Source: a virus
Direction: 5' to 3' (one strand)
IMG/VR virus record: IMGVR_UViG_3300040758_000113
DNA: 64,000 nucleotides
Below, piece after piece: positions 17,365-64,000 of the stretch. The notes under the pieces were generated by a model. That model was given only the letters and a program-made list of their open reading frames with translations. It searched no databases and had not been told where the DNA came from. The translations under genes were made by a program, and so were the position numbers. The stretch's first letter is position 1. Each line of letters starts with the position of its first letter.

Positions 17365-17675
17365 TAGAACACCGGTACCTTTGTGATATTTTCCTTGGTT
17401 TGCTGCGTTGTCTCCACCACCCCGCACCGTCCACAAGTCCTTATCCAACGGGGAATTTCCTGCCGGGGCACATCCGTGGGAAGTTGCCGGTCAACCCCCA
17501 TGGTGCCGGGCGGGTCGCCAGCGATATGGTACGCTTCGTGGATGATGGGGTCATACACCGGTTTACTCCACGCATGGCAGCACCGCAACTCCGCCTCCGC
17601 CAGCCGTATCTTCGCTGATTGAAGTTCGTTCTCCAGCCGGACTACCTCTGCCCTGAACACTTGTACGGGTAGCAT
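17364..17675 (-). CDS. hypothetical protein
   Basis: ATGA/TAATG coupling at both ends. Confidence 0.5.
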   Translation of the reverse strand: MLPVQVFRAEVVRLENELQSAKIRLAEAELRCCHAWSKPVYDPIIHEAYHIAGDPPGTMGVDRQLPTDVPRQEIPRWIRTCGRCGVVETTQQTKENITKVPVF

Positions 17676-22970: not shown

Positions 22971-23891
22971 TTACTTGGGTCCTTTTTCGTTCATACGATT
23001 TATCTCCTCCTTCATAAACCGCAGTTGTTGCAGAGTTTTTTCTGGTATTCCTTTGCATCCAGGATTGATGTTTTTTACCAAAGTTTGAAAAGCCACTGCC
23101 AAGTTTGCTTGGGCGGTCTTGATGATTAAGTACGGCCATATCCTACGAAGAATATCTTCAGCTTTTGAACTCGTCCATATCATCGTATAGCAGTCCTTGT
23201 GGATTTTCCTTCGCCCTTTTCTTCTAACCGTAGTCGCTCCCCATCTTTTCTCAAGGTAATTTTTGAGGGTTTCTGAAGTATTATAGACCCTTATGGATAG
23301 ACGGTAAGCCTCCCGGCGCTTTGTTTCCCTTTTTACGATTGAAATGGTCCCTTCTCCATCTACGAGGGCAGCGAGATGAGAAGCACTTTGTACGGGGTCA
23401 TTAAGGTCTGGAAACTCGTTCCTTTGTATTCCCCAGGTTTCTAGCCACTCTATCTCTTGAGAACTAAGCGGACATGGAGACGGATTTCCCGGCTTCCAAG
23501 GGTGGATATGGTCGGGGAGATTATTAAGTTCTGGGGGCCTCTGTCCGGTGTATACCCATATAGATGTTTGTAGGGCGTTAAGCAGGTTCCACATAGCTTG
23601 TGAAAGATGGGGTTCACTTCTGTCACCCTCTAAATGAGCGGTTATATGCCTTATAGCGCTATCAAGCAAATCCGCAATCTTCATCCCGTTCTCCCAATTA
23701 CGGGTGTCTCCATTACCTGTTCCACCTGAGAGAAGGTCTCGTTGTTTGTTACCTATTTCATAGATGCGAGAAACCATCTTAACGGCTGTCCAGGGCATCC
23801 AGTGAAATGCTCCCTTGCCTATACGACTGTCTCGTTGTGCTCCAGTGGAATATATAGTCTCTGCTGTGGCACTTTTTTTGAATTGTTCCAT
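22971..23891 (-). CDS. LAGLIDADG-type homing endonuclease with ~175-aa N-terminal extension
   Basis: LAALVDGEGTISIVKR motif. Confidence 0.55.
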   Translation of the reverse strand: MEQFKKSATAETIYSTGAQRDSRIGKGAFHWMPWTAVKMVSRIYEIGNKQRDLLSGGTGNGDTRNWENGMKIADLLDSAIRHITAHLEGDRSEPHLSQAMWNLLNALQTSIWVYTGQRPPELNNLPDHIHPWKPGNPSPCPLSSQEIEWLETWGIQRNEFPDLNDPVQSASHLAALVDGEGTISIVKRETKRREAYRLSIRVYNTSETLKNYLEKRWGATTVRRKGRRKIHKDCYTMIWTSSKAEDILRRIWPYLIIKTAQANLAVAFQTLVKNINPGCKGIPEKTLQQLRFMKEEINRMNEKGPK

Positions 23892-44158: not shown

Positions 44159-46645
44159 TTGATAACTGAAGGGAAAGGAAGAAAGCACCCTTCTCTCTGC
44201 CGCAAGTCAACGGGGTGCGTTTCAGTATGGGCGCACCCCGTGCATTTTACGCATCAAATAGGAAACGAACTACGGAACTTATCATGTAATGAGGAACCGG
44301 AAATTACCCTGATGCTTAGACGAGAAGCAGTGCCAAGAATGCCTAAAAAGCAGTGCAAACGGCTTGACCCTAACATCAAGAGCGAGGCTGAGGAAGAACT
44401 TGCCAGCAGCCTAAAGCATCTTATCGTCGGACAGACACGGGCAATTGAGGTACTCGTAGACGCATACGAAACCTTCCGTGCTGGTTTAGCCCCGCCTGAC
44501 CATCCTGTCGGAAATCTAATATTCCTCGGTCCCACCGGTTGCGGGAAGACCTACATCATTGAAGTAATGGCGGAGCTTCTCTTCGGCACCAAAAAGGCTC
44601 TCAAAAAAGTTGATTGTGCAGAATTTCAACACTCTCACGAGATTTCCAAATTGGTGGGGTGTTTCATTACGGGAACACGGGTGATGTTTCCCGGAGGCAC
44701 TGTTCTACCTATAGAAAAAGTCGAAAAAAACGCTAGCATAAGTGGGGAAAATGGGGAACCGCACCCTGTTATTGAAACCCATAGCCACGAATATGCCGGA
44801 GAAATAGTAAAACTAACGGCTGGAAACACCAACATACCCGTGGGATGCACTCCTTGGCATGAAATAAGGGCCATTCAGGACCCATGCACGAAAAACCGGG
44901 CGACGACAAAGAGGGGACGGCTCCTCAGCACGTTTTGCTCACCGAATAATCTTAAAGATATAGCGGCGGGAGACCTTAAAGCGGGGGATGTAGTGGTATA
45001 CCCTCGCCATAAATCTTCCCTCCAAGACGTAACCCTCGACTTAGCCGAATATACTAGGGGCCTTCCCAGATTTAAGTCTGATAACAAAGACATCTGGTCA
45101 ACGGCGACGAAAAAAAAGCTCCCCCGCTTTATACCTGTAAGCTCTGATTTTATGCGCTTGGCCGGATTTTACGTTAGCGAAGGTGGAAACTCCAAAAGCA
45201 AGAAATCCATCAATTTTACATTCGGAAAACACGGGCAGGACAGCCCGTGCATTCAAGAGGTGAGAGAGCTTATATACAGGGTGTTTGGGGACGTTCACAT
45301 AAGGGTGAAAGAGCGAAAGAGCAGTTATCGGATATACCTTTCCTCTCGACCCATAAGTCTTATGATGACTGACCTTTTTGGTGACCATGCTCTTCGCAAG
45401 CGTTTTCCAGCGTGGGTCTCCGACTTACGCCCAGAACTAGCCTACGACTTTTTAGATACGGCAATCTTGGGGGATGGGGGGAAGACTGTTTGCCGCCGCA
45501 TTGACTACGCCACAAGCTCCGAAACTTTGGCTTTCCAGATACAATTCCTCCTTCATAACTTGGGGTACGCAGTCCAAATGCAGGAGCAACACCCGAAGGA
45601 TAAGCGGGGGTATAAGGCATCCACTCGTTACCGGCTATACGTAGCCGGAGACCAAATAGCACAGTTTGCCAGTAACCTCCGCATAGTCGGGAAAAGCCTC
45701 AACCTTCTAAACTTGGGAAATTCGGGAATTCAACGTATGTCTTATGTGGATGATGACTATATCTACACCCGAATAAAAAAGATTGAACGAGAACTGTACA
45801 AGGGGATGGTGTACGATTTATCCATAAAAGATAAATCATACTATATGGTTTGTTTTCAAGTACATAACTCTCCTCCGGGTTATCTAGGACACCGGGATAC
45901 ACCAGCCTACTTACGTCAGGAAAGTCTGGATGCCCACCACACCGAAGAGTTAAAATTGACACTTTTACTCTTTGACGAGTTTGAGAAATCTAACGACGCC
46001 CTGTGGAACTTGTTACTTGGAATACTTGACAAAGGCACACTTACCTTGGGTGACAACAAGCAAAGCACCTTCGATAAATGCCTCATCATCATGACGGGAA
46101 ATCTCGGCTCCCGAGAAATGCAATATCTCGCCCGAGGTGGATTGGGGTTTGCCGGGTCTTCCACAAAGAGCAGTGAGGAGTTCAACAAAGAAGTGGAGAC
46201 AGCAGGACTGGAAGCCGCCAAGAAACGCTTCACCCCGGAGTTCCTCAACCGCATAGATGAGATAGTGGTGTTTCACTCCTTGGATAAGAAGCAACTCAAA
46301 CAGGTGGTGGAACTGGAAATCGAACAGGTGCAGAGCCGGGTGTTAAAGATGCGAGACCTCCGGCAGTTTGTCTTGGAGTTCACCCCCGCCGCCAAAGACC
46401 TGCTGATAACCCAAGGCACGGACTTAAAGAACGGGGCACGTCCTCTCAAGCGGATAATAGAGAAGCTGGTAGTGAAGCGGCTTTCCCGTTTTCTTAACAC
46501 CAAACAAGTCAACATGGGAGACCTCATCGTAGTGGATAAAGACAACGAAGACCTTAGTTTCACCCGTGTTGCCGAGGGTGTACTGGTCGCCGAAGATGTT
46601 GCTGTTAACGAGGAAGCCTCTGCTACCAAAGCTGCTACCAGCTAA
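44159..46645 (+). CDS. Clp/Hsp100 D2-type AAA+ ATPase interrupted by an intein
   Basis: LIVGQTRAIEVLVDA...GLAPPDHPVGNLIFLGPTGCGKT; SKLVG|C...HN|SPPGYLGH junctions. Confidence 0.8.
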   Translation: MITEGKGRKHPSLCRKSTGCVSVWAHPVHFTHQIGNELRNLSCNEEPEITLMLRREAVPRMPKKQCKRLDPNIKSEAEEELASSLKHLIVGQTRAIEVLVDAYETFRAGLAPPDHPVGNLIFLGPTGCGKTYIIEVMAELLFGTKKALKKVDCAEFQHSHEISKLVGCFITGTRVMFPGGTVLPIEKVEKNASISGENGEPHPVIETHSHEYAGEIVKLTAGNTNIPVGCTPWHEIRAIQDPCTKNRATTKRGRLLSTFCSPNNLKDIAAGDLKAGDVVVYPRHKSSLQDVTLDLAEYTRGLPRFKSDNKDIWSTATKKKLPRFIPVSSDFMRLAGFYVSEGGNSKSKKSINFTFGKHGQDSPCIQEVRELIYRVFGDVHIRVKERKSSYRIYLSSRPISLMMTDLFGDHALRKRFPAWVSDLRPELAYDFLDTAILGDGGKTVCRRIDYATSSETLAFQIQFLLHNLGYAVQMQEQHPKDKRGYKASTRYRLYVAGDQIAQFASNLRIVGKSLNLLNLGNSGIQRMSYVDDDYIYTRIKKIERELYKGMVYDLSIKDKSYYMVCFQVHNSPPGYLGHRDTPAYLRQESLDAHHTEELKLTLLLFDEFEKSNDALWNLLLGILDKGTLTLGDNKQSTFDKCLIIMTGNLGSREMQYLARGGLGFAGSSTKSSEEFNKEVETAGLEAAKKRFTPEFLNRIDEIVVFHSLDKKQLKQVVELEIEQVQSRVLKMRDLRQFVLEFTPAAKDLLITQGTDLKNGARPLKRIIEKLVVKRLSRFLNTKQVNMGDLIVVDKDNEDLSFTRVAEGVLVAEDVAVNEEASATKAATS
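44660..45868 (+). mobile_element. intein (403 aa) with LAGLIDADG homing endonuclease domain
   Basis: Cys1 after SKLVG; terminal HN then Ser; LAGFYVSEGG and LDTAILGDGG motifs. Confidence 0.75.
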
Positions 46646-50690: not shown

Positions 50691-51077
50691 ATGACAACTA
50701 AGGAACGAGAACAAAATTGGCGTAAGTTTTCAAAATACTACACCACAACTAAGGGCCGGGCGGCTTTCATGCTCAACAATGCTCGGAAAAGAGCAATAAA
50801 GGATAAAGTGCAGTGTCTTATAACTCAGGACTGGATTAGAAAAAAATTAGAACGGGGAGTATGTGAAGTAACTAACCTACCCCTTGAGTTAAATGTTGGT
50901 AATGGTAAAGGAAGTAGAACAAACTCATTTAGTCCCTCCTTAGACCGCAGAAATCAAACAGGAGATTATTCACCAGAAAATACTCGCCTTACTTGTTGGA
51001 TTTATAATAGGGCACGAGGTGCTTTTCCTGATGTTGATTTTGACAGGATGGTAAACGCACTAAAAACTAAATGTTAG
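50691..51077 (+). CDS. HNH endonuclease (HNH_3-like)
   Basis: SLDRRNQTGDYSPENTRLTCWIYNRARG. Confidence 0.6.
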   Translation: MTTKEREQNWRKFSKYYTTTKGRAAFMLNNARKRAIKDKVQCLITQDWIRKKLERGVCEVTNLPLELNVGNGKGSRTNSFSPSLDRRNQTGDYSPENTRLTCWIYNRARGAFPDVDFDRMVNALKTKC

Positions 51078-54000
51078 TCTTGAGGTTCTTGGTGGTGACA
51101 AACTCCTTGGGCATGGGCCGGTCATCGGCGGCGGTCATTTGAGAAGCTCCCCGGTAATGGGGTGCTTCTTCGGTGTTCTCCAACCCCTTGAGGTAACCAT
51201 GCTGGGACTCGTTGAAGTTGATAATGCGGACCTTGTCCCAGTCAATCAGTTGATTGAGTTTGTGTGCCCCGCCCGACCCCAGCACCGGCTGATTGAACAG
51301 AAGCACTTGGTGGGGAACCTGCGTAGTGCCGTGCTTATCGTAGATACCATCGTATCCGGCGTCAACGAGTTCTCTCTGCGTCGGTGCCTTGCTAATAAAC
51401 CGATGACTTTCTCCTCCCATGGAGGATACCCACTCGCCTTGCGGATTCTTCACTGCCAACTTTAGAGGACGGGTGAAATGAAGCTCCATGAAAGCTCCCT
51501 GCGCCCGGCCCGCTGCCCATGGGCTGGTGCGGTTCATGGACGGGTGGGTATAGACCCCCACCCCCATCTCGTTGTAGCCCTCGGTCTCACCGTAGAAGCT
51601 CTTCTGGGCCTTTATTTTCTTCGCCCGGTAAGCCGAGGTGCCGTGGTAGAGCGGACGGCTCCACGTCGCCTCCTCAGCCTTGACCGGCTCCGCCGCTGAC
51701 CGCTTCTGCAACCTCTGTTCCCGCTCCGCTATCTCCTCGGGTGTCATGTGGTAAATGGTGGTGGTACCCTCACGAGTCCAATAGCCGGGGAGACCAGAGT
51801 TGTTCCTCCAAGCTCCGGGGGGCAAACCCTCCTGCGAGATTTCCTCTTCTTCCTCTTCCGGCTCATTGATGGGTATGATGTCCCGGTCACTGACGAGCAG
51901 GATATCATCGCCGTCCGGGTAGTTGTGGGGGATAATCCAGCCGGGGAGGACTTGGGCAAGGTCTTCCACATAATCATGCCCACTTAGCGGGCTGGGGAAG
52001 TTGAACATATCAGCGAGTCTTTCAAGGTCTTCCGAACCATCTATCCTTGGGAGACGGATAGGCTTGGTGACTTGGAATTTGAGAATGCGTTGCTCGCCCT
52101 CCTCGCCGCCATGCCACGCCTTAAAGTACTCGGCAACAGATTCAGAGGTGCTAAACCATGCCGGGGTTTGGATGTCCATTGCCGGGAAATCTTCCGTTGT
52201 GCCGTGGTAGAGGATGGTACCCTTGGAGATAAGATAGGTCTTGCGCCAACGCCTCCACCACTCGCCGGAACTCCACTTGTGAACGGAGCCGGGCGGCATC
52301 CAGTCAACCACCTCATAAGCTTCGGTGTAGGGGTACTTTCGCTTGATGGCTTCTATCACCTCGGGAGGAGTAAATTCAAGGTCGAATCTCCTTCCTCCCC
52401 ATGGACCAAAAACCACCGTATCGTCTAGGCTCTCTTCTGAGGGGTTCTTAGAGTAGTCATAAGTCTCGGCATCCGTCCAGACGTAGATTTGCCTCTTAGC
52501 TTTGTCAATGTAAAAGTTGCCCCTTGGGATGCGGTCAAACTCCGGTCCTCGGTCGGGGATTCCCATACGAGAGAACCAGTCGGTGTGTGCCATTCCCCTC
52601 GGGCTAAGGAGAACCTTGCCCTCCCATATCGCCCACGGGTATCCTACCAATCCAGCTATCTTCATAGCCGACCGTAAGTCGGGGTGCATGTCCCGTTCAA
52701 TGTCGGTGCTGCCCTTGCAATCCATGCAGAAATAGGTGTCAGTGGTCGCAGAGTGCATCGCCCACGCTGTCTGGTCCGAACCACAACGGGGACAGAAACC
52801 TCCCCATTCCGAGGCGGTCTTGGCAGTCTTAGCGGTCATCAGGGGTTGAATCACGTCCTTCCCCCAGTACCGGTAATCAGCATCCACAGCGGGAGACACG
52901 AGAGCGAAGTAGGTCACTGTTCCTTGGTCCACGACGTAGGGAATATATCCGCTGGCGGACGCTCCCAGCCGTGCCATGCGTGCATACAGGGCGGCTCTAC
53001 CAACGCCCTCCGCCGAAAAGTACATCGCCGGGGGACGGAGGTCGTGCAGGGCGCTCATGACCAGACCACCCACCTTGGTGAACACCTCGGCAACGTGTCC
53101 TGTGTTGGTAGTCCCATAGGCACCAAGCAGGTTGGCATCGGCGTTCAAAAAGAGAAAGCTGACCGCTTTGTTACCAAAGGTAGGAAGACCCGGCTCGGCA
53201 TCCGTCCAACTCTGCATGACAGCGGTGTAGGGGATGTATCCCTTTTTTGTCTCAGGGGCCTTGATGTAAAATTGGGAACGCCAACGGCCTCCGCTGGCAT
53301 ATTGCCAGTCTTCCCAATCGGCTGGCTCCGGGACTTGCCGGGCGGCGGTCTTAGGCTGGGCATATGTCACATCGCTATCATAAACACCGTAGTCCATGCC
53401 ACTCCTGCTCCACTTCACCGTCAGAAACCGCTTGTTGCCGCCGTGGTACTTCTGACGAACATCCTCACCCGCATCATTGGTCTCCATGATATCCCGAATG
53501 TCCAACAGGGTACCTTTTTCTCCCGTGGACTTACGGATGACCGTGCAACCGATTTCACCCGGCTTGGCAACCTTGATGTATTTCGGAGGGACAGCGCCAT
53601 GCAGGATGACAGTGTTGGGGGACATCCCCTGCTCGTAGTCGTAATGGTAATCGTCATCCCCCAGTACATGAGCGAGATACTCCCGTGTCTCGCCCTCGGC
53701 GATATCAGTCTCCTTACCGGCAAAGGGTAAGCTACTGGGAGGAAGCTCTCGCTTCATGGCCTCGGTGTCAATCTCTAACACGGTGTCGTAGTAGCCGGAC
53801 TCATCCCAGTCGGTGCTGGTGAAGACCGCCGCTCCCGTGCTTCGGTTACTCAACCCCCGAGTCTCATCCATAGGGAGCAATCCCTGTTGCAGAATGGTCT
53901 CTACCTTGTCCTCATCCGTCCCATGATACAAGGTGGAGGGGTAGGCCCAAAATTCCTTGTTAAATTTTTCTTCCGAATCAGGCAGGAACTTCTCGGCATT

Positions 54001-55104
54001 GTAATCGAAGAGGAGGTCTCGAACGTCAGACCACATGGTGAAGGTTCCGTCATCATCCACGGCGACCACCGCACCGCCCACCTCATAAAACTTGCCACCA
54101 TTGTAGGCGAGCGCCATCTCCGCTCCATGCTGAGCGAGGATGGCTTCCACTTTTGGCAAGTCACCCTCCACCTCATAGAGGGCGTTTTCCAAAGTGTTGT
54201 ATCCTGCGTATCCCCGCTTGCTGACAAAGAATGCTTTCTTGAGAGCGGCGGTGAACTCTGCCCTCTGTGGGTCGTATTGTTGTGCAATTGCTGACTTAAT
54301 TTGGTTAGGCTCGAAGGCTATCCAAGCAACTCCACCTTCCACCAGATTCTTGTAACGGATACCGTCGTGCCCTGCGGCTTGCAGCTTTGCTCTTGCTTGC
54401 ATGGCGAGGTCATAGGCAGCATCTTTGAGCATCTCCTCTTCCCCCTCTTCGGGGTGCATACGCTCGAACAGCCACTCATTCTGTCCCTGCCGGAAAGCTG
54501 TATCGGTATCGTACTCTCGATACCACTCATCGGCTTTCTGTGGGGAACCCTCCTCATCCTCCGGGCTTATGCCATCGGCTATCATGGCGGACTGCAAAAG
54601 CTCCTCTTCATACCCACCTATCTTCCCCTGATAGATGAACTGGAGCATGTTCTTCTCGCTGCCAAAGTCTTTGGGGTTGGTGATACGGAGATACACGGGA
54701 ATGACACGGGGTTTTTCTTCATTGCCCTCATACCGGGTCTGAGTCCACCCCTTGCCCATGGCGAACATATCAGCGACCTTGGGGTCCACGGCGAAATGTG
54801 CTCCCATGAAAGCGCTGGGGTCCCAGCCGCTACCGGAGGACAGCGGCTCGCCTGTCTCCGTGGTCACAACGCCGTCTGTGCTGAACTCCTCGAAGTCCAC
54901 CGATGACCGGGCGCCGAAGGCCCGGAGCGGTCGGCCTTGCTGGTCCACCACTTTGGACCCGGCAAACCAACGCCGGAAATTGGGGGACTCCACACCGGCT
55001 CCTATTTTTGGTGAGGCAGTTTTTCTGGGCCGAGTAATCTGGTGCGCTACCCGAGCCAACTCCTCATCCGTTATGGAGTTAGCATCCTTTTCGAGTAAGT
55101 CCAT
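51067..55104 (-). CDS. giant multidomain protein (1345 aa) with three hhYHGT ART/Tpt1-fold domains, Zn-ribbon and shared GPEFDRIPRG module
   Basis: STLYHGTDEDKVETILQQGLLP; ILYHGTTEDF...WFSTSESVAEYF; PLYHGTSAYR; CPRCG...CMDCKG. Confidence 0.8.
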   Translation of the reverse strand: MDLLEKDANSITDEELARVAHQITRPRKTASPKIGAGVESPNFRRWFAGSKVVDQQGRPLRAFGARSSVDFEEFSTDGVVTTETGEPLSSGSGWDPSAFMGAHFAVDPKVADMFAMGKGWTQTRYEGNEEKPRVIPVYLRITNPKDFGSEKNMLQFIYQGKIGGYEEELLQSAMIADGISPEDEEGSPQKADEWYREYDTDTAFRQGQNEWLFERMHPEEGEEEMLKDAAYDLAMQARAKLQAAGHDGIRYKNLVEGGVAWIAFEPNQIKSAIAQQYDPQRAEFTAALKKAFFVSKRGYAGYNTLENALYEVEGDLPKVEAILAQHGAEMALAYNGGKFYEVGGAVVAVDDDGTFTMWSDVRDLLFDYNAEKFLPDSEEKFNKEFWAYPSTLYHGTDEDKVETILQQGLLPMDETRGLSNRSTGAAVFTSTDWDESGYYDTVLEIDTEAMKRELPPSSLPFAGKETDIAEGETREYLAHVLGDDDYHYDYEQGMSPNTVILHGAVPPKYIKVAKPGEIGCTVIRKSTGEKGTLLDIRDIMETNDAGEDVRQKYHGGNKRFLTVKWSRSGMDYGVYDSDVTYAQPKTAARQVPEPADWEDWQYASGGRWRSQFYIKAPETKKGYIPYTAVMQSWTDAEPGLPTFGNKAVSFLFLNADANLLGAYGTTNTGHVAEVFTKVGGLVMSALHDLRPPAMYFSAEGVGRAALYARMARLGASASGYIPYVVDQGTVTYFALVSPAVDADYRYWGKDVIQPLMTAKTAKTASEWGGFCPRCGSDQTAWAMHSATTDTYFCMDCKGSTDIERDMHPDLRSAMKIAGLVGYPWAIWEGKVLLSPRGMAHTDWFSRMGIPDRGPEFDRIPRGNFYIDKAKRQIYVWTDAETYDYSKNPSEESLDDTVVFGPWGGRRFDLEFTPPEVIEAIKRKYPYTEAYEVVDWMPPGSVHKWSSGEWWRRWRKTYLISKGTILYHGTTEDFPAMDIQTPAWFSTSESVAEYFKAWHGGEEGEQRILKFQVTKPIRLPRIDGSEDLERLADMFNFPSPLSGHDYVEDLAQVLPGWIIPHNYPDGDDILLVSDRDIIPINEPEEEEEEISQEGLPPGAWRNNSGLPGYWTREGTTTIYHMTPEEIAEREQRLQKRSAAEPVKAEEATWSRPLYHGTSAYRAKKIKAQKSFYGETEGYNEMGVGVYTHPSMNRTSPWAAGRAQGAFMELHFTRPLKLAVKNPQGEWVSSMGGESHRFISKAPTQRELVDAGYDGIYDKHGTTQVPHQVLLFNQPVLGSGGAHKLNQLIDWDKVRIINFNESQHGYLKGLENTEEAPHYRGASQMTAADDRPMPKEFVTTKNLKTNI

Positions 55105-58100
55105 ATTTCCTCGGGTTCTTCAAGATGTACTGTGTCACTTCTGCCACATCTTTCTCATTGCCGTACAAGGGACGCTCGCCTTCTCCAGATTCGGGTATCT
55201 CCCCCATAAACTGGTTCATGAAGTCGTCGGGTTGATAAGGACCTCCATCCAAGCTCACCTCGGGGTTCGCCGGGTCCATGTCAAAATCCTTCGCCATGAC
55301 CGCTGGTGACCGCTGACCCTTGATGTCGTAGGTCTTTCCGTCCGGTGCCATGCAGTAGACGTGGGTCATGTTCCAGTCCACCAAATTGCCGCTATCTTCA
55401 AGCTCTGCAATCTGTTCTGGACTCATCTCCCCAATATTATGCCATGGGTCGCCTTCGGGGTCGGACATAAAGTACACGACACCTCGATTCAATCGGGCCA
55501 ATGCCACAGCAAATATACCGCACCCCTCGGTCATGTAATAGCCGGGGTCAAACGCACTGGAATCATCCCCGTGTCCAGGCTGGAGGAGTCCGAGGCCGGG
55601 GAGAGCGGCGGTCTTGGAAGCCACGCTCAGGTAGGCCATGTTTTGGGGCATCGGCTCATTACCCCAAAAAACCTCTTGAGCTTCTTGCAAAGTCCACAGG
55701 TAATACATCTCATCTTGGGTTGAAACTGAGACCTTACGAACGCCTCTCGGCAGATTCTCCAAGCCCATACCTATCAGGTTCTTGGTATCGGCATCAAGAG
55801 TCTTTGACTCAAAGAAGATGGTGTTGCCGGTGTTAGAGAATCCAACCCGAATGTTCCCCTTGGCAATGACCTGCTCTTTCCGCTGGGTGTCGTTCTTTAT
55901 CTTCTTGGCTTCTTCCTTGGTTAAAAACCCGAGGCGCAGGGCGCTGTCTTCGTGCTTTTCACCGAAAGCGTTGGGGAGGAAACGACCATCGGGGGTCAGC
56001 CATCCCTCACCTTCAACGGAGAAGGAAGCGGTCTTGGTTGTAGCCTCCCACAAAGTTTTCATGGGATTGGGGAGACCCAACTCCTCCCGGTAATCATACT
56101 GCCCGGCGTGCGGTCCACCTTTTACATGGATGATGAAGTCCACCATCCGACCTTCCACCTGTTGGTACTTGTCCCAAAGTGGTTGGTCTCTTTCCACCAT
56201 ATCCCATGCGGGAGTGCCCTTGGGGAAATCAATGACCACATCAATGTCAGACTTGGGTTTGAGTTCGTCACGAGCGGCGGAGCCTGCCAAGGAGATGCGC
56301 TGGCACTCAGGGTATATCTTGCGTATATCCGCTACCATCTCAGCGATAGTGGATTGAGTCTCGGGCTTGAGCGGCTCTCCGCCCGGCTCCGTGCTCCACG
56401 CCTCCTTGGGAATAAGGGGGGCATTCCTACCCTTATTGAACTCCTTGTTTAACTCTTTTGCCTCCTCCACGCCGCCGTATTGCTCCCACCGCTCATATTC
56501 ATTCATGCCGGTGAAGAGCCGATTCAAGGTGGTCCTTCCGCCTTGCACCAGCCAGCTTGACAGGTCGCTGCGGGGGTGGGAAAACTGCAAGACCTTATCA
56601 AGCGCTTGTAACTTGTCTTCATCACTCTTGGCAAGGTACACCCCTTGCACGAGATTCATCAAACGCCCCTCAGCTTGGTCACTTATCCTCCAGCCGCCTT
56701 CCGGGGTATCAAAGTAGTCTGGTGCCCTCTTAAAGTAGTCCTCCGGGAATTTCTTGGATATACCTTCCCTTTCCAGCATCTCCAAAGCATACTCTTCTGG
56801 CCCCATCGCACTATGACCGCAGAGGATGGAATTGACGTAAATCTTAAAGCAGTTGTCAATGACGGTTTCCGCTATCTGATTAAGACCCGCTGAGTCCCGG
56901 ACAAACCCCGTCTTCATGTAGTCTTCCCAAATTTTGATGAGCCGGGCGGCGGGCACGACATTCCACTGCTGACGATACCTCTTCTGGCGGACGTGCTGCA
57001 TGTATTCGGTGATTACTTCTACGGCTACCACGCTCTCCCGGTCAAAGAACGCCTCTGCCGCATCGTAGTAAGCATCGTCACTGGCAACTTTTTTGAAGGC
57101 TACAATACCCGTGTCGGAGCTTTCCGTATCAACGAATATAAACTCCTTCAGATTGTACCGATTCTTGATGTATTCCACTACGTCATTGGGCGTGTATCCC
57201 CCGGCGTTCTTGACGAGGTGAACGACTCTGTGCCCTCGGTCTACAATCGCTACCCCTCGTTCTATTCGGTCGTAGGAAGGACCGGAGAACGGTAGGCTCA
57301 GTTCTTCCAACCACTGGGCATGGCTCTTGCCCCCAACCTGTACGGTGGTGTAAAGCTTTCCCTCATGACGAACCCACATGATGACTGTCTTTTTAATAGC
57401 AGCGTCCTTGAAACCAAACCCGTCATCTTCATCATAGACTTCGGGGAGGTCTTCCTCCGTCAATTCCTTCACGTACCGGAAATCCTTACCCTCCACCAAC
57501 TGAGTGCGAGGAGTGATGAGAATGGCGCTATATGCTTTGTCTCCACCGCTAGGGTCCATGGCATACTGCACATCATCACACAGATAGTCATCTTCGGTGG
57601 GATATATCTCCACCACCCACGCCTTGGAGTCACGGCTGTAATCTTCTGTCAGCCGACTGAACCAATAGTCGGGGTCACCCACATGGACGGCCCGTAGATG
57701 TGGGTAGTCGTTTGCGGAGCCTGCCAAGCCCACGGTGTCCAACATGTGAGTCTTGAGGACCGGCTGGCGCTCCCACACCACCCGCTCGAAGTTCCCCATC
57801 TCCTCCGCCAAGGAGATAAGCTCGTGCTCGTATTCCAGTTTCTTTACTTCCTCGGTGTAGGCCGGGGATAGAGAGGCGGTCAGGGGGTGCTCATTGTGGG
57901 GATTCTGAACTTGGTCGTCCTCGTAGAAATCATTATGCCGGTCCGGGAACGGCTCGTCATATGACCATCCCTGCTGACCGGATATCCCGAGGTCATCTAT
58001 GGCTTTTCCAGTGGGTAGAGCCGCCTGCTTGGGGAGCGATATAGTCTTGATGAGCTTGATATTTTGTGGAGGAATATCCCAGAGATACTTCCACGCCGTG

Positions 58101-59764
58101 GGGTATTCGTGCCGAACCTCGAAGTCCGGCCAAAACGTTCCTTCCCCTTGTGGGACTTTCACTTCCCAGATGTCACAAGCTTGTCCTGTGTAGGGCTGCT
58201 GCTCACCTACCCAGTTCTCGGCATCAGTGAGGCTACCGAACAAATACACCGCTGGCTCGTGCTCCACATCCTCATACTGCTGCTTGTGGTACATCTGCAA
58301 TCCATTTTTTAGAATGGAGTTCCGGCTACGGCGACGGCTGACATGGTAGGCAATCTGAGGGTATTCAAACTCATCGGCTGCCCATTTGCCCATTATCCGA
58401 GGAGCAACCTCATCTACAAACTCAAAGTCCCGGAGTGAGGGATACTTCTGCTTTATCTTGGCTACTACTTCCTCGGGGGTAAAGTCAAAGTCAACCTCTC
58501 CTGTAATGGATTCACCTGCTCTTGACCCCTTGGGTGCGGCATCGGTGTACAGCCGGACTCGCTTCTTCTTCTTATTGACTTCCGCCCTTCCCCGAGGAAC
58601 TTTATCAAACTCCGGTCCCCATGAAGGAATGGGGTCATGCCGTTGAGAATGCTGATTGAGTTCTTGAAACCATTTAACATGCCAGAGACCCATGTCATCG
58701 GTCAACAGCACTTTGTTATGCCAAGTTGCCCACAGTAACTCAAAATCGCAAGGCTCATAAGCGACTACGGGAATGCCCTTACCCCGGAAGGGAAGTTTAC
58801 CCTGCTCCTTGGGCGGCTTCCACTCGGGTTCTGCTGGGGCGTGGAACTGGTTATAGAACTCCAACAGGTCTTCATCAGAGTGAAGGTCCAGAACGTTCTG
58901 ATATGTGCGGTCCAGCTTGATAGCCTCTTTAACTGGCATGACCGCCGCTACCTTAACCGCCTGCGGGTTCTCCACCCAAAACTCATTGCCGAATCCCCGG
59001 CTTACCTGATGGTAGGATTCCCTCGGCACTTCCGACATGTCAATGACGGCGACATACGCCCGGTCGCTTTCGTAGTAATCCGTCCAATTCTCCAAGTGAG
59101 AAGTAACCATCAACTTTCCCGGCACAGGTGTCCCGCCTCCCATGCTGGACATATCCCGAGGACCCTTCGCCGGGTCGATAGTGAAGTTGGGGTTGTCGGT
59201 GACATGGAAATACAGTCCATGCTTAATGTCTATGGAGAAGTCATGCTTGAAGTCCTCGAAGGTAGGAGCCTTGCGTGTTTCCGCCTTAAGCCCATTCAAC
59301 AGGGGATGAGACCACCTTGTCTGTGTGGACGCCGTTTTATCCAATAAGGGATACCTCTGGATAAACTCCTCAGCCCATCTCCTCACCCTCGGCATACAAG
59401 ACGCCATTGATTCCCTATGCTTGGGGTTATTGAAAAATTCACTATCGTGAAGATAACTAACCTCTCCCGAAAACCCCTCAGCAAGGTCGAGAGGCTTACC
59501 ATCTGGAGTGATGTTGTACTGATGCCCCCAGTTTCCTTGAATGTCAAGCCCGAAAATCGTCTTTCCGAACAGAGAGATAAATTTGCAGGCACCCGACATA
59601 TCCGTAGGGTTGGATTTACCTAACTCTTGGGCACGCTCTTTCCACTTCTCGGCTAAGAACACCTTCGCCTTTGAAACCCACTCGGGAGTAACTGGGTATA
59701 TGGTTAGATTATCAGGCATAGTCTGTAACCTTTTCGGGGTCGGACGTATCCTCGTCGGGGTCAC
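55079..59764 (-). CDS. giant multidomain protein (1561 aa) with MNT-type nucleotidyltransferase domain, ART-like domain and two copies of shared module
   Basis: RISLAGSAARDELKPKSDIDVVIDF; IAYHVSRRRSRNSILKNGL; WGPEFDKVPRGR and FSGPSYDRIERG modules; GTG start after GAGGGGGG. Confidence 0.8.
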   Translation of the reverse strand: MTPTRIRPTPKRLQTMPDNLTIYPVTPEWVSKAKVFLAEKWKERAQELGKSNPTDMSGACKFISLFGKTIFGLDIQGNWGHQYNITPDGKPLDLAEGFSGEVSYLHDSEFFNNPKHRESMASCMPRVRRWAEEFIQRYPLLDKTASTQTRWSHPLLNGLKAETRKAPTFEDFKHDFSIDIKHGLYFHVTDNPNFTIDPAKGPRDMSSMGGGTPVPGKLMVTSHLENWTDYYESDRAYVAVIDMSEVPRESYHQVSRGFGNEFWVENPQAVKVAAVMPVKEAIKLDRTYQNVLDLHSDEDLLEFYNQFHAPAEPEWKPPKEQGKLPFRGKGIPVVAYEPCDFELLWATWHNKVLLTDDMGLWHVKWFQELNQHSQRHDPIPSWGPEFDKVPRGRAEVNKKKKRVRLYTDAAPKGSRAGESITGEVDFDFTPEEVVAKIKQKYPSLRDFEFVDEVAPRIMGKWAADEFEYPQIAYHVSRRRSRNSILKNGLQMYHKQQYEDVEHEPAVYLFGSLTDAENWVGEQQPYTGQACDIWEVKVPQGEGTFWPDFEVRHEYPTAWKYLWDIPPQNIKLIKTISLPKQAALPTGKAIDDLGISGQQGWSYDEPFPDRHNDFYEDDQVQNPHNEHPLTASLSPAYTEEVKKLEYEHELISLAEEMGNFERVVWERQPVLKTHMLDTVGLAGSANDYPHLRAVHVGDPDYWFSRLTEDYSRDSKAWVVEIYPTEDDYLCDDVQYAMDPSGGDKAYSAILITPRTQLVEGKDFRYVKELTEEDLPEVYDEDDGFGFKDAAIKKTVIMWVRHEGKLYTTVQVGGKSHAQWLEELSLPFSGPSYDRIERGVAIVDRGHRVVHLVKNAGGYTPNDVVEYIKNRYNLKEFIFVDTESSDTGIVAFKKVASDDAYYDAAEAFFDRESVVAVEVITEYMQHVRQKRYRQQWNVVPAARLIKIWEDYMKTGFVRDSAGLNQIAETVIDNCFKIYVNSILCGHSAMGPEEYALEMLEREGISKKFPEDYFKRAPDYFDTPEGGWRISDQAEGRLMNLVQGVYLAKSDEDKLQALDKVLQFSHPRSDLSSWLVQGGRTTLNRLFTGMNEYERWEQYGGVEEAKELNKEFNKGRNAPLIPKEAWSTEPGGEPLKPETQSTIAEMVADIRKIYPECQRISLAGSAARDELKPKSDIDVVIDFPKGTPAWDMVERDQPLWDKYQQVEGRMVDFIIHVKGGPHAGQYDYREELGLPNPMKTLWEATTKTASFSVEGEGWLTPDGRFLPNAFGEKHEDSALRLGFLTKEEAKKIKNDTQRKEQVIAKGNIRVGFSNTGNTIFFESKTLDADTKNLIGMGLENLPRGVRKVSVSTQDEMYYLWTLQEAQEVFWGNEPMPQNMAYLSVASKTAALPGLGLLQPGHGDDSSAFDPGYYMTEGCGIFAVALARLNRGVVYFMSDPEGDPWHNIGEMSPEQIAELEDSGNLVDWNMTHVYCMAPDGKTYDIKGQRSPAVMAKDFDMDPANPEVSLDGGPYQPDDFMNQFMGEIPESGEGERPLYGNEKDVAEVTQYILKNPRKYGLTRKGC

Positions 59765-59772
59765 CCCCCTCT

Positions 59773-61197
59773 CTACTTAGCTTGTTTGCTATCCCATTTC
59801 AGGTACGCACGGTCATCTTCTCCTATTCCGGCCAATAAAATGTGGGCTGTCTTAGATGCGAGACTTCCCCCTCTTTTATGTACAGAGGAGGTTACCACAA
59901 GATTTGAAGGGATATCGTCAACGATGTTAAAGTCTCGAAGCTGAGGGAAGGTCTGCAACATAGCCTTTACAACATGCTCCGGGGCGAAGGTGAAATCCGC
60001 CTGCCCCGTGATACCACCACTTCCTGCCTCGGTAAAAATTACGACCTCATCACGGGCCGATTGAACCCAGATTCTCCCTCGGGGGATACGGTCGAACGCC
60101 GGGCCGGAATCGGAAAGTCCAACTCGTTTAAACCAGATAACGTGGGGTTCAATCTCCAAGGAAAAAATCACCCGGTCATTCACGATAGCCCACAGAAAGC
60201 TTCGTGTACCGTCTATGATGTCGGGGGGGAGTCGCAACTTTTTAGCGGCAGCCTTGTAAAGCTGCATCGGACCTACTGCTCCCTTTACTCGTGCCCCATG
60301 TCCGATTGCCAAGCTTTCAGCGAGGCTGTTCCCCACTTCCTTACCCACTGACCGCTGATTGGCAAGCTGGTCAGTATCCGGCAGTAATCGCCGGGCGGTG
60401 ACATTGACAGCGTAGACAGTGATATCCTCTCCGGGGTAAGCCAGTTCTCCAAAGTTCTTGGCGTTCCCCGGATATACGGAGAGATACACGTAACCGGGAC
60501 TGGATTGATACGATTTAGCCCTGCTGGGACTGGTCGGAAGCAACCCCTCCTCCATCACTGGCAAATCAGAGGCGGTACCGTGATAAAGGGTAATGAAGCG
60601 GTTGGGGTCGGAGCGAAGGAAGCTGGCAAGGGCCTTTATGCGCTCTGGCGAGGGATTTCCGTAGAACACGTCGTGCCACTGGGGGTCGGAAGAGAAGTCG
60701 GTTGCCTCTGCCCAAGCGGCAGTCTTTATCCCTCCCGTAGCTATAGCGAAAGCACGGTCTGCCATACGCTTGGCAAAAAGCTCTTCGGGGTCAGAGAGAT
60801 ATTCTTTCTCGGTGGGGGGATGAGCGGGGTCAAACGGTTTAGATGGTCGCCCCTCCGCTGCCCAAATAGCGTGAGCGCCTTCCTCAAACAGAGTTTTGAC
60901 AATGTTGGTGGTGCTGATGGCGGGGTTGATAAATATCATCGAACCACCGTGGGAAACCCCGTATCCACCTTGCCACTTTAAGGGGGAACCACCCTCCAAC
61001 TCCACCTCTTCCGGTTTATTGAAGGTCTTGATGGGGGTTTCAAGTACTTTCTCATATATTTCCCTAAGTCGTTGATTCCTAAGTAAAGTACTGAGATGAC
61101 CCACAACCACTCCGGGGGCATGGTTGTGTATCTTCTCAAGGAATCCCCGGTCAAGGTTATCCCAAACTCCCGCCGTCTTGTAGATAAGCTCTTCCAT
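59773..61197 (-). CDS. 474-aa protein with Tpt1/KptA-like ART-fold domain and shared module
   Basis: ITLYHGTASDLPVMEEGLLP (cf. KptA LYHGTASRFLDEIKKQGL as remembered); SGPAFDRIPRGR ... DFTFAPEHVVKAMLQTFPQLRDF. Confidence 0.75.
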   Translation of the reverse strand: MEELIYKTAGVWDNLDRGFLEKIHNHAPGVVVGHLSTLLRNQRLREIYEKVLETPIKTFNKPEEVELEGGSPLKWQGGYGVSHGGSMIFINPAISTTNIVKTLFEEGAHAIWAAEGRPSKPFDPAHPPTEKEYLSDPEELFAKRMADRAFAIATGGIKTAAWAEATDFSSDPQWHDVFYGNPSPERIKALASFLRSDPNRFITLYHGTASDLPVMEEGLLPTSPSRAKSYQSSPGYVYLSVYPGNAKNFGELAYPGEDITVYAVNVTARRLLPDTDQLANQRSVGKEVGNSLAESLAIGHGARVKGAVGPMQLYKAAAKKLRLPPDIIDGTRSFLWAIVNDRVIFSLEIEPHVIWFKRVGLSDSGPAFDRIPRGRIWVQSARDEVVIFTEAGSGGITGQADFTFAPEHVVKAMLQTFPQLRDFNIVDDIPSNLVVTSSVHKRGGSLASKTAHILLAGIGEDDRAYLKWDSKQAK

Positions 61198-61213: not shown

Positions 61214-61921
61214 TTAAGAGTCTAGTGGTAGTGCTTCAACAAACTTCTGTCCCGTACCTCGGCTTTGATTTTTAGCTAGATTACTCATTTTGGCACGGTA
61301 TTCGGGGTTTGTCCATCGCTCTCTTTGAAGTGCTGCTTGTTTTTTCCTTCTCTCTGGGTCAGACCATGTTTTCTTATTAACCGTGCTCATTTTACTGTGA
61401 AAATCAAGATTTTCAAAAGCCTTCATACGATTAGAACGAGAATAAGGGTCCGCCCATGAATCCCTAATCGCTTGAACCCGATTAGAAAAAGACTCAGGTT
61501 TAGCCCAGTCAGCTTTGAGATTTGCCGATTGCTTGGCTCTTTTTTCGGGGTTAGCCCAAGCTCGTTTAACCCCTTCACTCATTTTAGCACAAGTTTGAGA
61601 AGAATGCAGTCCGGTAAACCCCTCCCCTCCACGACAAAGATTGTAGCCATACTCAGGGTCTTGAGCACGAAGGAACTTGATGAAGTCCCGCTCGGTCTCA
61701 TCAAGCTCGGCTTTAGCTTGGATATCGGAACGGAGGGCGTGGATGGACCAAAGATGAGGAAAGGGGTGTTTACGCATGGAATTATAAAGACGAGAATTTC
61801 CCCCTCGTCCGTGTCTGGCATCTGAAAATTTTTGTTGAAGGTACTTCTTTAGATTATTACCTGTATGTTGACCGACATAATACTTTCCTGTTTCATGATT
61901 TACAATCAAATAGATAAACAT
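61214..61921 (-). CDS. GIY-YIG homing endonuclease (paralog of 24675..25523)
   Basis: MFIYLIVNHETGKYYVGQH; about 75% identity over N-terminal 100 aa with the other copy. Confidence 0.8.
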   Translation of the reverse strand: MFIYLIVNHETGKYYVGQHTGNNLKKYLQQKFSDARHGRGGNSRLYNSMRKHPFPHLWSIHALRSDIQAKAELDETERDFIKFLRAQDPEYGYNLCRGGEGFTGLHSSQTCAKMSEGVKRAWANPEKRAKQSANLKADWAKPESFSNRVQAIRDSWADPYSRSNRMKAFENLDFHSKMSTVNKKTWSDPERRKKQAALQRERWTNPEYRAKMSNLAKNQSRGTGQKFVEALPLDS

Positions 61922-61964: not shown

Positions 61965-62678
61965 TCATTGAATATTTTCTAGCCAATCTGCGGCATCCTG
62001 CGTGGAAATGAGGCTTTTAGACCAGTTTGGGCGGTCGTGTGGACCCATCTCCAAGGTCACTTCTCCCTTGAATGGCATCATCAACAGAGCCTCGGTGATG
62101 AGTCGGCGGCTCTTTGTGACATTTCGTGCCTGTATGGAAAACTGACCAGCATCCCGGTCAACCCGGAGGTGCCCATTCTCCATGGCAAGGTTCTCGGCAT
62201 ATCCGAGGTAATCCTCTCCCCCCTGCTCCTCCACCTCTGAATCATCCATGCCGCACAGGTCTTCCGCCATCGCCCACTCTCCGTGGAGTTCGTAGGGGTG
62301 AGTCATGGGGAGAGGTCGCCCGTCCCGAGATATCCAACCTCCATTTTGAGAAAGCCTAGACCAATCGGCGGAGCGTTCAGGCCACGGACCGGACGGTTGC
62401 AGAAGGGGATTTACTCTGCGCCGGGCAGCCTTCACCCGGAAGCCTCCCTTTATCTTCCCACCGTAGACTTGCTCTTCTTCATTAACGTGGGGAGTCTTGT
62501 ACAAAGATGAGTCGTAGCCATCAGGAGAGTAGTTAAATAAGAGGCTTTCTAACTCTTTTTTCTCCATTATATTGGGTGAATGAACAAACCACCGCTTTAT
62601 GGAAAGATTGTTATCAATAACATAACGAGCAGCGGTTAGTCCAAGACCGCCTGCCTCTGGTTGTGTTAAATCTCTCAT
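61965..62678 (-). CDS. hypothetical protein (237 aa)
   Basis: ORF. Confidence 0.6.
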   Translation of the reverse strand: MRDLTQPEAGGLGLTAARYVIDNNLSIKRWFVHSPNIMEKKELESLLFNYSPDGYDSSLYKTPHVNEEEQVYGGKIKGGFRVKAARRRVNPLLQPSGPWPERSADWSRLSQNGGWISRDGRPLPMTHPYELHGEWAMAEDLCGMDDSEVEEQGGEDYLGYAENLAMENGHLRVDRDAGQFSIQARNVTKSRRLITEALLMMPFKGEVTLEMGPHDRPNWSKSLISTQDAADWLENIQ

Positions 62679-63463
62679 ACATCAGGCTTTCTGTATTCAG
62701 CCATCTCCACTCTTTGCTTTTCGAGACATCTAATACAACGACTGTAATTAGGGGCAACTGGATTGCTACAACACTTACATTCCCCACGGGCAGCTTTAGC
62801 TACCCTTAACCGTTTCTGTCCTTCCGCTCTTTGACACCTTTTTCCGCAATAGATACTCTGACCACTCTTGTTAAGGAAAGATACCCCACATCTGGGACAA
62901 ACCAAAATCTCGTACTCTCGTGGACAAGTTATCCGTACATACCCCAATGCCTCAAGTCTCTTTCGTTCGGCGGCTAACTCTCTGGTGTGCTTGTTATGAC
63001 AAATCTTGCACAATATCCGTCCATTACTTACTTCATATCTAAACTCTGGATAGAGAGACCATGGCTTTATGCGGTCAGCCTCTAACCCATCACTAGACCC
63101 GCATAAGACACAGTGGGGTCCATCTCTTTCAAAGACCGCTTTCCGCCAACGACGAAGCTTACCGGAACGAATCTCTTTCTTTCTATTTCCCGCTATACCG
63201 CCTCGCCAGTTTCCATTTTTATCCCCCTCCTTATGTTTACGCTTGCATTCAATACTACAGGTGACATATCTATAAGCTACTGAGGCGCTTACGGAAAATA
63301 CCTTATTACAAACGATGCACTCCTTTTTGACCTTGTCCTTTTGTAGCCACTCCCTTCTGCACTTATTAGAACAGAGCTTCACAATAGGAACGGAGTTCTT
63401 AGCATAACGACGCTTGAAGTTCCCCCCACAAACGGTGCAATTGCCTCTAATAGTCATTCGCAT
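62675..63463 (-). CDS. HNH endonuclease with multiple Zn-ribbon repeats
   Basis: LCGSSDGLEADRIKPWSLYPEF...ILCKICHNKH; CxxC...CSNKC repeats like 5372..5968. Confidence 0.75.
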   Translation of the reverse strand: MRMTIRGNCTVCGGNFKRRYAKNSVPIVKLCSNKCRREWLQKDKVKKECIVCNKVFSVSASVAYRYVTCSIECKRKHKEGDKNGNWRGGIAGNRKKEIRSGKLRRWRKAVFERDGPHCVLCGSSDGLEADRIKPWSLYPEFRYEVSNGRILCKICHNKHTRELAAERKRLEALGYVRITCPREYEILVCPRCGVSFLNKSGQSIYCGKRCQRAEGQKRLRVAKAARGECKCCSNPVAPNYSRCIRCLEKQRVEMAEYRKPDV

Positions 63464-63504: not shown

Positions 63505-63975
63505 TTATCCAAAACTAATAGCCTCGGGCATGGGATGCGTCGTCATGTACTGGAAGAACTCTTCATAATTCCTGACCCAATCAACATCAGGAGCGGTGGG
63601 TCGGCGCATGTCGTCAACATAGAGGAGTCTGGCGGGCTGCTCTTCCGCCTTCTTCCTCACCTTTTTGGTCGGGTTAACATAGATTTTCAACAGGTTGGGG
63701 AAGGTGTACGGAGCCATGCACTGCCACGCTTCCTCGGGGGTGAGGGGGTAGACTTCCATGAAGTCCAGACCCATTTGGAGGCGCTTCTTAGCCCGGTGGT
63801 TTCCGTCAATGAGGATGTAGTGTTTCTGCGGTTCGGAGTGAGTCTTGTCCGGCTTGAAAATGAGGGGAGCAACAATACCGGGCTTCTCAGCATCAACGGT
63901 CTGCATGTGTTCCTTATTCAGGCCCACATTCATGAGGTTGATTCTACCCTCTTCCTCAGCCTTGTCATCTTCCAC
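63505..63975 (-). CDS. hypothetical protein (156 aa)
   Basis: ORF near window edge. Confidence 0.5.
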   Translation of the reverse strand: MEDDKAEEEGRINLMNVGLNKEHMQTVDAEKPGIVAPLIFKPDKTHSEPQKHYILIDGNHRAKKRLQMGLDFMEVYPLTPEEAWQCMAPYTFPNLLKIYVNPTKKVRKKAEEQPARLLYVDDMRRPTAPDVDWVRNYEEFFQYMTTHPMPEAISFG

Positions 63976-64000
63976 GGTGCCAACAAAGGCTTTGAGAAAT

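Follow-up and report, generated by a model that had tools for sequence, protein, structure and literature searches.

We analyzed a 64,000-nucleotide (nt) stretch of viral DNA from the IMG/VR record IMGVR_UViG_3300040758_000113, hereafter the window, in which three contiguous giant open reading frames (ORFs) lie on the minus strand, as an initial annotation made from the letters alone had described. The ORFs encode 474, 1561 and 1345 amino acids (aa) and are called A474, B1561 and C1345 here; their positions and those of their domains are listed in Table 1. The proteins are encoded by a phage, belong to the class of polyvalent proteins, and carry ADP-ribosyltransferase (ART) domains, a nucleotidyltransferase (NTase) and a shared module of about 100 aa. 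We consider it likely that the three ORFs form part of a polyvalent effector array of several genes in a jumbo phage, whose mode of action we model by analogy.

Table 1. Array ORFs, their domains and the homing-endonuclease genes among them (window coordinates; domain ranges in residues)
Feature	Position	Strand	Description
A474	59773..61197	-	474 aa; polyvalent-array ORF: N-terminal domain without assigned fold, Tpt1-like ART lobe, module
A474 1-170	60688..61197	-	Also within polyvalent protein P0031 (676-824, BLASTP E 5.6e-9); no Pfam match
A474 T domain (LYHGT...VYLS)	60298..60630	-	Tpt1/DarT-like ART NAD lobe with Ala at the third catalytic position; member of the T-family alignment
Module, A474 326-434	59896..60222	-	140.7 bits (module HMM)
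B1561	55079..59764	-	1561 aa from GTG; polyvalent-array ORF; likely true start is ATG at 59719 (1546 aa)
B1561 22-140, conserved Cys/His-containing domain	59345..59701	-	Homologs P0011 1273-1391, P0018 1833-1951, r3027 647-761; placed differently in relatives
YFHVT domain (YFHVT...MVTS), B1561 150-333	58766..59317	-	Family of six members among collected homologs
Module copy 1, B1561 335-458	58391..58762	-	133.0 bits (module HMM)
B1561 T domain (AYHVS...VYLF...WEV)	57995..58390	-	Tpt1/DarT-like ART lobe; H, Y and E all present
Module copy 2, B1561 787-886, short variant	57107..57406	-	106.0 bits (module HMM)
B1561 900-1085	56510..57067	-	Common to P0071 and P0037; 46% identity to P0071 2051-2229, E 8.5e-43
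Pol-beta/MNT nucleotidyltransferase (GSAARDELKPKSDIDVVIDF)	56015..56338	-	PF01909 in B1561
B1561 1398-1558, invariant Cys and His (YYMTEGCG...H)	55091..55573	-	Homologs in P0009, P0012, P0013
C1345	51067..55104	-	1345 aa; polyvalent-array ORF
ART-PolyVal (PF18760), C1345 36-290	54235..54999	-	VYHGT changed to AF-GA
C1345 T domain (LYHGT...VFTS...LEI)	53575..53979	-	Tpt1/DarT-like ART lobe; Pfam matches sub-threshold
Small ~80-aa domain of C1345	53329..53574	-	66% identity to P0003 1218-1293; 49% to P0037 3837-3912; other positions in relatives
Zinc ribbon (CPRC...CMDC) of C1345	52699..52800	-	Weak zinc-ribbon Pfam matches, E 0.009-0.06; four Cys in sequence
Module, C1345 814-941, ~25-aa insert	52282..52665	-	142.6 bits (module HMM)
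C2 domain (ILYHGT...WFSTS...GWIIPxNYPDGDDILL), C1345 943-1096	51817..52278	-	ART fold, divergent ART-PolyVal type
C3 domain (PLYHGTS...GVYTHPS...AGYDGIY), C1345 1146-1300	51205..51669	-	Possible compact ART-PolyVal-like domain
GIY-YIG homing-endonuclease gene	61214..61921	-	PF01541 E 5.8e-4, just under cutoff; GIY-YIG motif in sequence; between 237-aa ORF and A474
237-aa array ORF	61965..62678	-	83% identical to relative's 1436-aa ORF residues 1213-1436; 49% to polyvalent P0095 C-terminus
HNH homing-endonuclease gene	62675..63463	-	PF01844 E 7.2e-5; absent at that site in relative, flanking ORFs fused
346-aa array ORF, C-terminal part in window	63505..64000, runs past edge	-	cREC-like C-terminus; whole gene L001 560-1600

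Polyvalent proteins of phages and conjugative elements were defined by Iyer, Burroughs, Anand, de Souza and Aravind (2017, J Bacteriol; PMC5512222). In that paper, the main protein-modifying domains are ARTs of the Tox-ART-HYD2 type, with as many as 12 in a single protein, along with GNATs and Pol-beta NTases, and packaging in the capsid followed by injection is predicted by analogy with T4 Alt; later surveys repeat this packaging and injection view for jumbo phages. Polypeptides of the class combine 2-15 effector-type domains. From homology breakpoints and hidden Markov models (HMMs), we counted three such domains in A474, at least nine in B1561 and at least eight in C1345. The repertoire of the class is represented by PF18760 and PF01909 in the window and by cREC, GNAT, InPase and a weak SprT-like domain in adjacent ORFs or the relative described below. 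Coding by a phage is indicated by the IMG/VR relatives and by tail-fibre PHROG matches, the window encoding a collagen-like tail fibre (down to E 6.6e-32). By domain count, repertoire and phage coding, the guess of the initial annotation that these are polyvalent proteins was right, but the domain combination, which it had called unusual, is not, as ARTs, GNATs and Pol-beta NTases are standard polyvalent domains in PMC5512222. This kind of system is already known, the combination of ART and NTase is ordinary for the class, and no new class of system is opened here.

Like other polyvalent proteins, the array products are phage-encoded giant multidomain chains in which the ART is the commonest module, present in several copies, and domains are rampantly shuffled between relatives. 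A Pol-beta NTase is present, and GNAT, cREC, ParB and InPase occur in neighbours or relatives. The array differs from the described class in that its load is spread over adjacent genes (at least five array ORFs within or shortly past the window; in the relative, about 9,900 aa in all), that the ORF boundaries shift between genomes about 90% identical, and that a recurrent domain and several others are missing from Pfam.

Versions of the array about 90% identical to that of the window were found on two IMG/VR jumbo-phage contigs (237,553 and 316,945 bp). The same-strand ORFs of the relative encode, in order, 2048, 1269, 223 (HNH-like), 1436, 3027, 549, 288 (GIY-YIG) and 1566 aa, the above total being counted without the endonucleases. 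The domains found there are GNAT, cREC, several ART-PolyVal, NTase and GP88, with a weak SprT-like match (E 0.009); shortly upstream of the run there is an InPase gene. A474 and B1561 together correspond to the single 3027-aa ORF, of which A474 represents the N-terminal 469 aa (88% identity). C1345 corresponds to the 549-aa and 1566-aa ORFs, which are split by the GIY-YIG gene, and the 237-aa ORF, the 346-aa ORF and a further upstream ORF of the window array form the single 1436-aa ORF. The 346-aa ORF matches cREC_REC at E 2e-4 and is 93% identical to residues 695-821 and 978-1179 of the 1436-aa protein, where the cREC_REC match reaches E 3e-18. The sites of the homing-endonuclease genes between array ORFs (those of the window in Table 1; L006, 19738..20604) differ between the two phages and coincide with the splits and fusions of the giant ORFs.

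Because the relative fuses and splits these ORFs and further ORFs of the array extend upstream as far as the window reaches, the three giant ORFs are arbitrary slices of a longer, plastic array, and the end at 61197 that the initial annotation had drawn falls inside it. The gene boundaries are evolutionarily fluid, with homing-endonuclease insertions and domain transpositions fusing and splitting ORFs between close relatives. More distant homologs show the same domains rearranged. All 34 homologs of C1345 (776-2352 aa, on contigs of up to 465 kb) carry PF18760, and most also carry NUDIX, GNAT or ParB. Shared domains stand in differing orders in P0002-P0005 and P0037, and P0037 (3912 aa) alone unites domains from all three ORFs, with 33% identity to B1561 over 988 aa. 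Tandem ORFs with PF18760 also occur at two further loci, encoding 4120, 2795 and 1554 aa (L002) and 1645 (cut by the locus end), 2069 and 928 aa (L003).

The junctions between the three ORFs had been taken as signs of translational coupling. The 26-nt overlap between B1561 and C1345 is real, and the same overlap is kept in the relative. The 8 nt that separate the A474 stop from the B1561 GTG in the sequence as read depend on a doubtful start. The Joint Genome Institute (JGI) annotation of contig L001, which is 99.99% identical, starts B1561 15 codons downstream of the GTG, giving 1546 aa, homolog P0005 begins at the residue equivalent to this downstream ATG, and GAGGGGGG touches the GTG without a spacer and is half of the palindrome GGGGTGACCCC. 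For these reasons the GTG is probably not the start, and the gap between A474 and B1561 would therefore be 53 nt rather than 8 nt. We likewise rejected GAGGGGGG as a Shine-Dalgarno sequence of B1561, given its zero spacing to the GTG, its palindromic setting and the homolog-supported ATG downstream. The palindrome itself, at 59755..59775, directly follows the stop codon of A474. The relative lacks a stop at this point, and a domain of about 130 aa that the window carries here in addition (B1561 22-140) occupies another place in the 3027-aa ORF of the relative. At the other end of the three genes, the C-terminal ~23 residues of C1345 (51067..51135) differ between the window and L001 through one of the two indels that separate them (1345 versus 1322 aa), and homolog P0121 favours the frame of the window.

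We then compared the domains suspected of an ART fold. Exact YHGT motifs occur four times in the 3380 aa (A474 residue 205; C1345 residues 393, 966 and 1153), against a mean of 0.015 expected from composition-preserving shuffles; a count of four did not arise in any of 20,000 shuffles. The initial annotation had placed the motif in all three proteins, which is correct for A474 and C1345 but not for B1561, where only the variants YFHVT (residue 186) and AYHVS (residue 473) are present. The proteins contain ART-fold domains, probably of the H-Y-[E/D] type and presumably NAD+-using, in three sequence types, namely canonical ART-PolyVal, C2 and a family that we named T. The claim of an ART fold stood for PF18760 in C1345, for the T domains of all three proteins and for C2, but it was not supported for the YFHVT domain and has weak backing in C3.

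The T family was built by iterative HMM searches among the collected homologs and covers about residues 190-300 of A474, 459-590 of B1561 and 376-510 of C1345, with the consensus YHGT...N...I...GL.P...VYL[ST]...V.EV...PD...IPP. Its histidine is invariant and VY[LF] is conserved. At the third catalytic position, B1561 (WEV) and C1345 (LEI) have Glu and A474 has Ala. A profile of 22 members was searched against solved structures in the PDB and matched Tpt1 (9ld4, E 1.6e-9), DarT1 (E 3e-6), diphtheria toxin (E 5e-3), PARP15/16 (E 0.02) and Exotoxin A (E 0.09). In Pfam, C1345 387-450 matched PTS_2-RNA (PF01885) with 20.2 bits (E 6.7e-4), below the gathering threshold of 26 bits, the T domain of C1345 matched PARP at a sub-threshold E of 0.016, and weak PF01885 matches were seen in five of the 22 members.

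Because the Tpt1 match is restricted to residues 89-178 of the 180-residue chain (positions 98-158 of 177 in the Pfam profile), the T domains resemble the NAD lobe of Tpt1 without being Tpt1 enzymes. The N-terminal RNA-binding and catalytic lobe was not detected in them by Pfam or PDB profile matches. In Tpt1, this N-terminal lobe bears most of the catalytic Arg-His-Arg-Arg tetrad. With the lobe match alone and the PF01885 score below threshold, we rejected the T domains as Tpt1 enzymes; the likeness to Tpt1 and diphtheria toxin noted in the initial annotation stood for the NAD lobe. What the T domains share with the Tpt1 NAD lobe is the pattern YHGT...GL.P...VYLS...IPP. They differ from Tpt1/KptA in being about 100-130 aa long and set within giant proteins, and in having Glu at the third catalytic position in two of the three, as in protein- and DNA-modifying ARTs.

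The NTase motif reported in B1561 was confirmed by Pfam: PF01909 matched residues 1148-1190 with 27.0 and 30.1 bits (E 6.2e-6 and 6.3e-7), passing the cutoff of 21. The quoted string GSAARDELKPKSDIDVVIDF begins at residue 1161, and GSAARDELKPKSDIDV there fits the motif G[SG]-x(9-13)-D-x-D.

An ART fold near Tpt1 together with an NTase might also belong to an intracellular toolkit for NAD or ADP-ribose handling and RNA repair, expressed in the infected cell rather than injected. The Tpt1-like domains would then remove 2'-phosphates or ADP-ribosylate nucleic-acid ends, the NTase would repair or tag RNA 3' ends and cREC would process cyclic phosphates, together countering host defences that cleave transfer RNA or deplete NAD. 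Several observations fit: the best solved relatives of the T family are Tpt1 and the DNA-modifying DarT1, a cREC_REC domain lies in an adjacent array ORF, an RlaP-type RNA-repair NTase is encoded at 16426..17448 on the minus strand (PF10127, E 1.7e-13; phrog_388, E 4.6e-39), and PMC9503650 ties KptA, 2H, cREC and Nudix to phage RNA repair. However, the Tpt1 resemblance stops at the NAD lobe with a sub-threshold Pfam score, and in architecture, repertoire and domain shuffling the array matches polyvalent effectors rather than compact repair operons. We therefore regard such a toolkit as unlikely and retain the polyvalent effector array.

The only Pfam-significant ART domain, the ART-PolyVal domain of C1345, has lost its motif histidine. 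PF18760 was placed at residues 54-275 with 65.2 bits (E 1.4e-17; gathering threshold 31.2 bits), so this region is a clear member of the Tox-ART-HYD2 clade. All 23 aligned homologs have (V/C/A)YHG[TS] with the histidine kept, whereas C1345 has AF-GA. Compared with the 93%-identical relative, the site (54916..54930, C1345 residues ~59-63) differs by an in-frame 3-nt deletion and three substitutions within 12 nt, the surrounding DNA being otherwise about 95% identical, and the independent JGI contig carries the same variant. The change looks like a targeted loss of the histidine.

This loss could also be read as a sign of decay, the genes being largely non-functional, selfish domain accretions broken up by homing endonucleases and of little present function. 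The histidine disappeared through a clustered deletion and substitutions, HNH and GIY-YIG genes split ORFs, and C1345 lacks the C-terminal GP88 domain (PF17338) in which its orthologue in the relative ends after running about 450 residues further. Nevertheless, the ORFs have stayed open over 474-1561 aa, long stretches of the proteins are 88-96% identical to those of relatives and the domain motifs are conserved, the other ART domains retain YHGT and the downstream motifs, and the overlap of B1561 and C1345 is kept in the relative. Decay of this extent seems to us very unlikely, and functional effector genes remain the preferred reading.

C2, in which the string ILYHGTTEDFPAMDIQTPAWFSTSESVAEYF quoted by the initial annotation begins at C1345 residue 964, is an ART fold of a divergent ART-PolyVal type, because 16 of 18 members of its family show sub-threshold PF18760 matches and the copy in the relative scores 30.6 bits. 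By threshold it is not a member of PF18760 (13.3 bits in the window; cutoff 31.2). The invariant motifs of the family are GT.LYHGT, W.S.S and GWIIP.NY..GDDIL, and in the alignment YHGT, W-F-S-T-S and GDD are invariant. C2 and possibly C3 share YHGT and an aromatic-S/T motif with PF18760; C2 is set apart by its end block GWIIPxNYPDGDDILL and by standalone proteins of about 230 aa within its family. C2 is followed by an element, LPG.WTR.G...YHMTPEEIAERE (C1345 ~1105-1140, 51685..51792), which is conserved at this place in several relatives and was confidently modeled by AlphaFold2 (AF2) as a beta-hairpin and a helix.

C3 is possibly a compact ART-PolyVal-like domain. It matches positions 9-115 of PF18760 with E 0.084 and 14.1 bits, which is below the Pfam threshold and does not make it a member, and it has weak collinear similarity blocks to ART-PolyVal and the T family. 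Its AF2 model is of low confidence, with a predicted local distance difference test score (pLDDT) below 50, and profile or sequence searches of the PDB gave nothing significant. Between domain families, hhalign gave weak links of T with C2 (65%), T with C3 (42%) and ART-PolyVal with C2 (32%). For the YFHVT domain of B1561, no ART signal was detected, its hhalign probability to ART families being below 1% with no PDB match.

The shared module is a real domain family that had not been catalogued. All-against-all BLASTP linked A474 334-434, B1561 343-458 and C1345 816-943 (E 1e-14 to 1e-18) and placed a weaker second copy at B1561 797-884 (E 1e-4 to 1e-6), which together with the module HMM reproduces the one, two and one copies counted by the initial annotation. 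A word-indexed search with the module alignment gave two proteins. The family emerged when 1.84 billion cluster representatives were searched exhaustively with HMMER, which yielded 88 proteins at E <= 1e-3 (23 at E <= 1e-10), that is, 88 clusters at 50% identity. Some are giant proteins with two to four copies each (P0037, 3912 aa; P0038; P0044; P0046), and many are standalone proteins of 80-180 aa. The alignment of 59 sequences has the motif W-A...H..WF...GLP..G..FD.I.RG...P..V, in which His and Gly are invariant and Pro, Gly, Asp and Arg nearly so. The AF2 model of the A474 copy is confident (pLDDT 87.2; predicted template modeling score, pTM, 0.81) and has a beta-beta-alpha-alpha-beta-beta-alpha-beta topology. 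As the annotation had supposed, no known relative was found: none of 43 small members matched Pfam, none of 59 copies matched PHROGs, the best Foldseek match in BFVD had E 0.015, and none was found in the PDB.

Proteins with the module also carry Acb1/2H, GNAT, InPase, ParB_N, PI3/4-kinase-like, SprT-like, LigD, helicase, Zeta toxin, SET and NUDIX domains. A detectable ART-type domain lies within 60 aa of 13 of 75 module copies, so that obligatory coupling to ARTs was rejected. Given this fraction and the diverse partners, the module is a promiscuous accessory domain rather than an ART-specific one, and because it is combined freely with many enzymes and also stands alone, its most probable role is as a reusable adaptor or ligand binder without catalytic activity. 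More tentatively, and with some doubt on our part, the module might be a newly recognized, independently folding domain with a function of its own, catalytic or ligand-binding. It would then be the hallmark of a lineage of jumbo-phage effector arrays reaching about 10,000 residues, whose gene boundaries are reshaped by homing endonucleases and whose catalytic sites are switched off (VYHGT to AF-GA) in an arms race with the host.

On the model of T4 Alt and of polyvalent proteins, the array products would be made late and packed into the capsid, and then delivered into the cell together with the DNA. There, the ART domains would attach ADP-ribose to proteins or nucleic acids of the host and the NTase would nucleotidylate its targets, with the net effect that defence is blunted and host functions are taken over. 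T4 Alt and podophage ejection proteins, among them the pre-ejectosome of cyanophage A4 (PMC12002296), are precedents for capsid-packaged, injected proteins. Alt belongs to the R-S-E clade, whereas the ARTs of the array are probably of the H-Y-[E/D] type, and an ART domain is not described for the A4 pre-ejectosome in PMC12002296. Some observations weigh against this explanation. Pfam scans of the array showed no fusion to MuF, portal or another head protein, the neighbours are small ORFs without assigned function and homing endonucleases instead of head genes, roughly half of the residues fall in domains without an assignable fold, and the ART-PolyVal domain of C1345, having lost its histidine, may at least itself be inactive.

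The window also encodes a homolog of the eukaryotic major vault protein (MVP) at 30809..33241 on the plus strand (810 aa; MVP shoulder PF11978, E 8.2e-22; Vault_3 PF17795, E 2.2e-10), which is 94% conserved in the two IMG/VR jumbo-phage contigs. A literature search found no report of MVP in phages; putative vault proteins have been reported in Borg elements. The initial annotation correctly saw this gene 18 kb from the array and raised a functional link, in which the phage MVP homolog would build a vault-like shell with the ART-rich giants as cargo or partner, comparable to eukaryotic vPARP. The gene and the array do co-occur in both related contigs. However, they lie about 72 kb apart there and in a different relative strand orientation, and the 10 kb around the L002 and L003 arrays showed no MVP. 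The structural match to PARP4 scores below diphtheria toxin, MbcT, Tpt1 and RES toxins, indicating no specific affinity to vPARP, and according to PMC5512222, polyvalent ART arrays are widespread in elements without reported MVP. With neither conserved linkage nor specific similarity to PARP4, a tie between the array and the MVP gene is not supported, and we hold the vault idea to be extremely improbable.

New here are the delineated module family, the C2 subtype, which also occurs as standalone proteins, the multi-gene array and the way homing endonucleases have reshaped it, and the ablated histidine. The array is a well-delimited example of a jumbo-phage polyvalent load organized as a plastic multi-gene array and not as a single giant protein. 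For annotation, it provides the module as a new family with a confident structural model, and C2 as a defined divergent ART-PolyVal subtype that includes the standalone proteins. The two closely related genomes are natural experiments in fusion and fission at homing-endonuclease sites and in surgical loss of a catalytic histidine, and could guide the functional dissection of such effectors.

Several database searches of the region were of little help. Neither megablast with the 10 kb region nor tblastn with C1345 found a match among GenBank phages, the three whole proteins had no meaningful phmmer hit among PDB sequences, and PHROGs gave them weak or uninformative matches only. Pfam showed nothing significant for the A474 N-terminus, for B1561 22-140, 600-786, 900-1085 and 1398-1558, or for C1345 511-592 and 595-765, and PDB sequences showed nothing significant for B1561 22-140 and 1398-1558.

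Elsewhere in the window, a ClpB/AAA_2-type ATPase is encoded at 44159..46645 on the plus strand (PHROG 'ATP-dependent protease', E 2.3e-70); an intein that carries a LAGLIDADG endonuclease domain interrupts it. At 22971..23891 on the minus strand, a gene joins an N-terminal dATP/dGTP diphosphohydrolase domain (PF18909, E 4.7e-10) to an endonuclease-like region, which matches the PHROG 'HNH endonuclease' (E 3.5e-17) and, weakly, LAGLIDADG_1. Diphosphohydrolases of the PF18909 type are associated with phages that modify their DNA bases.

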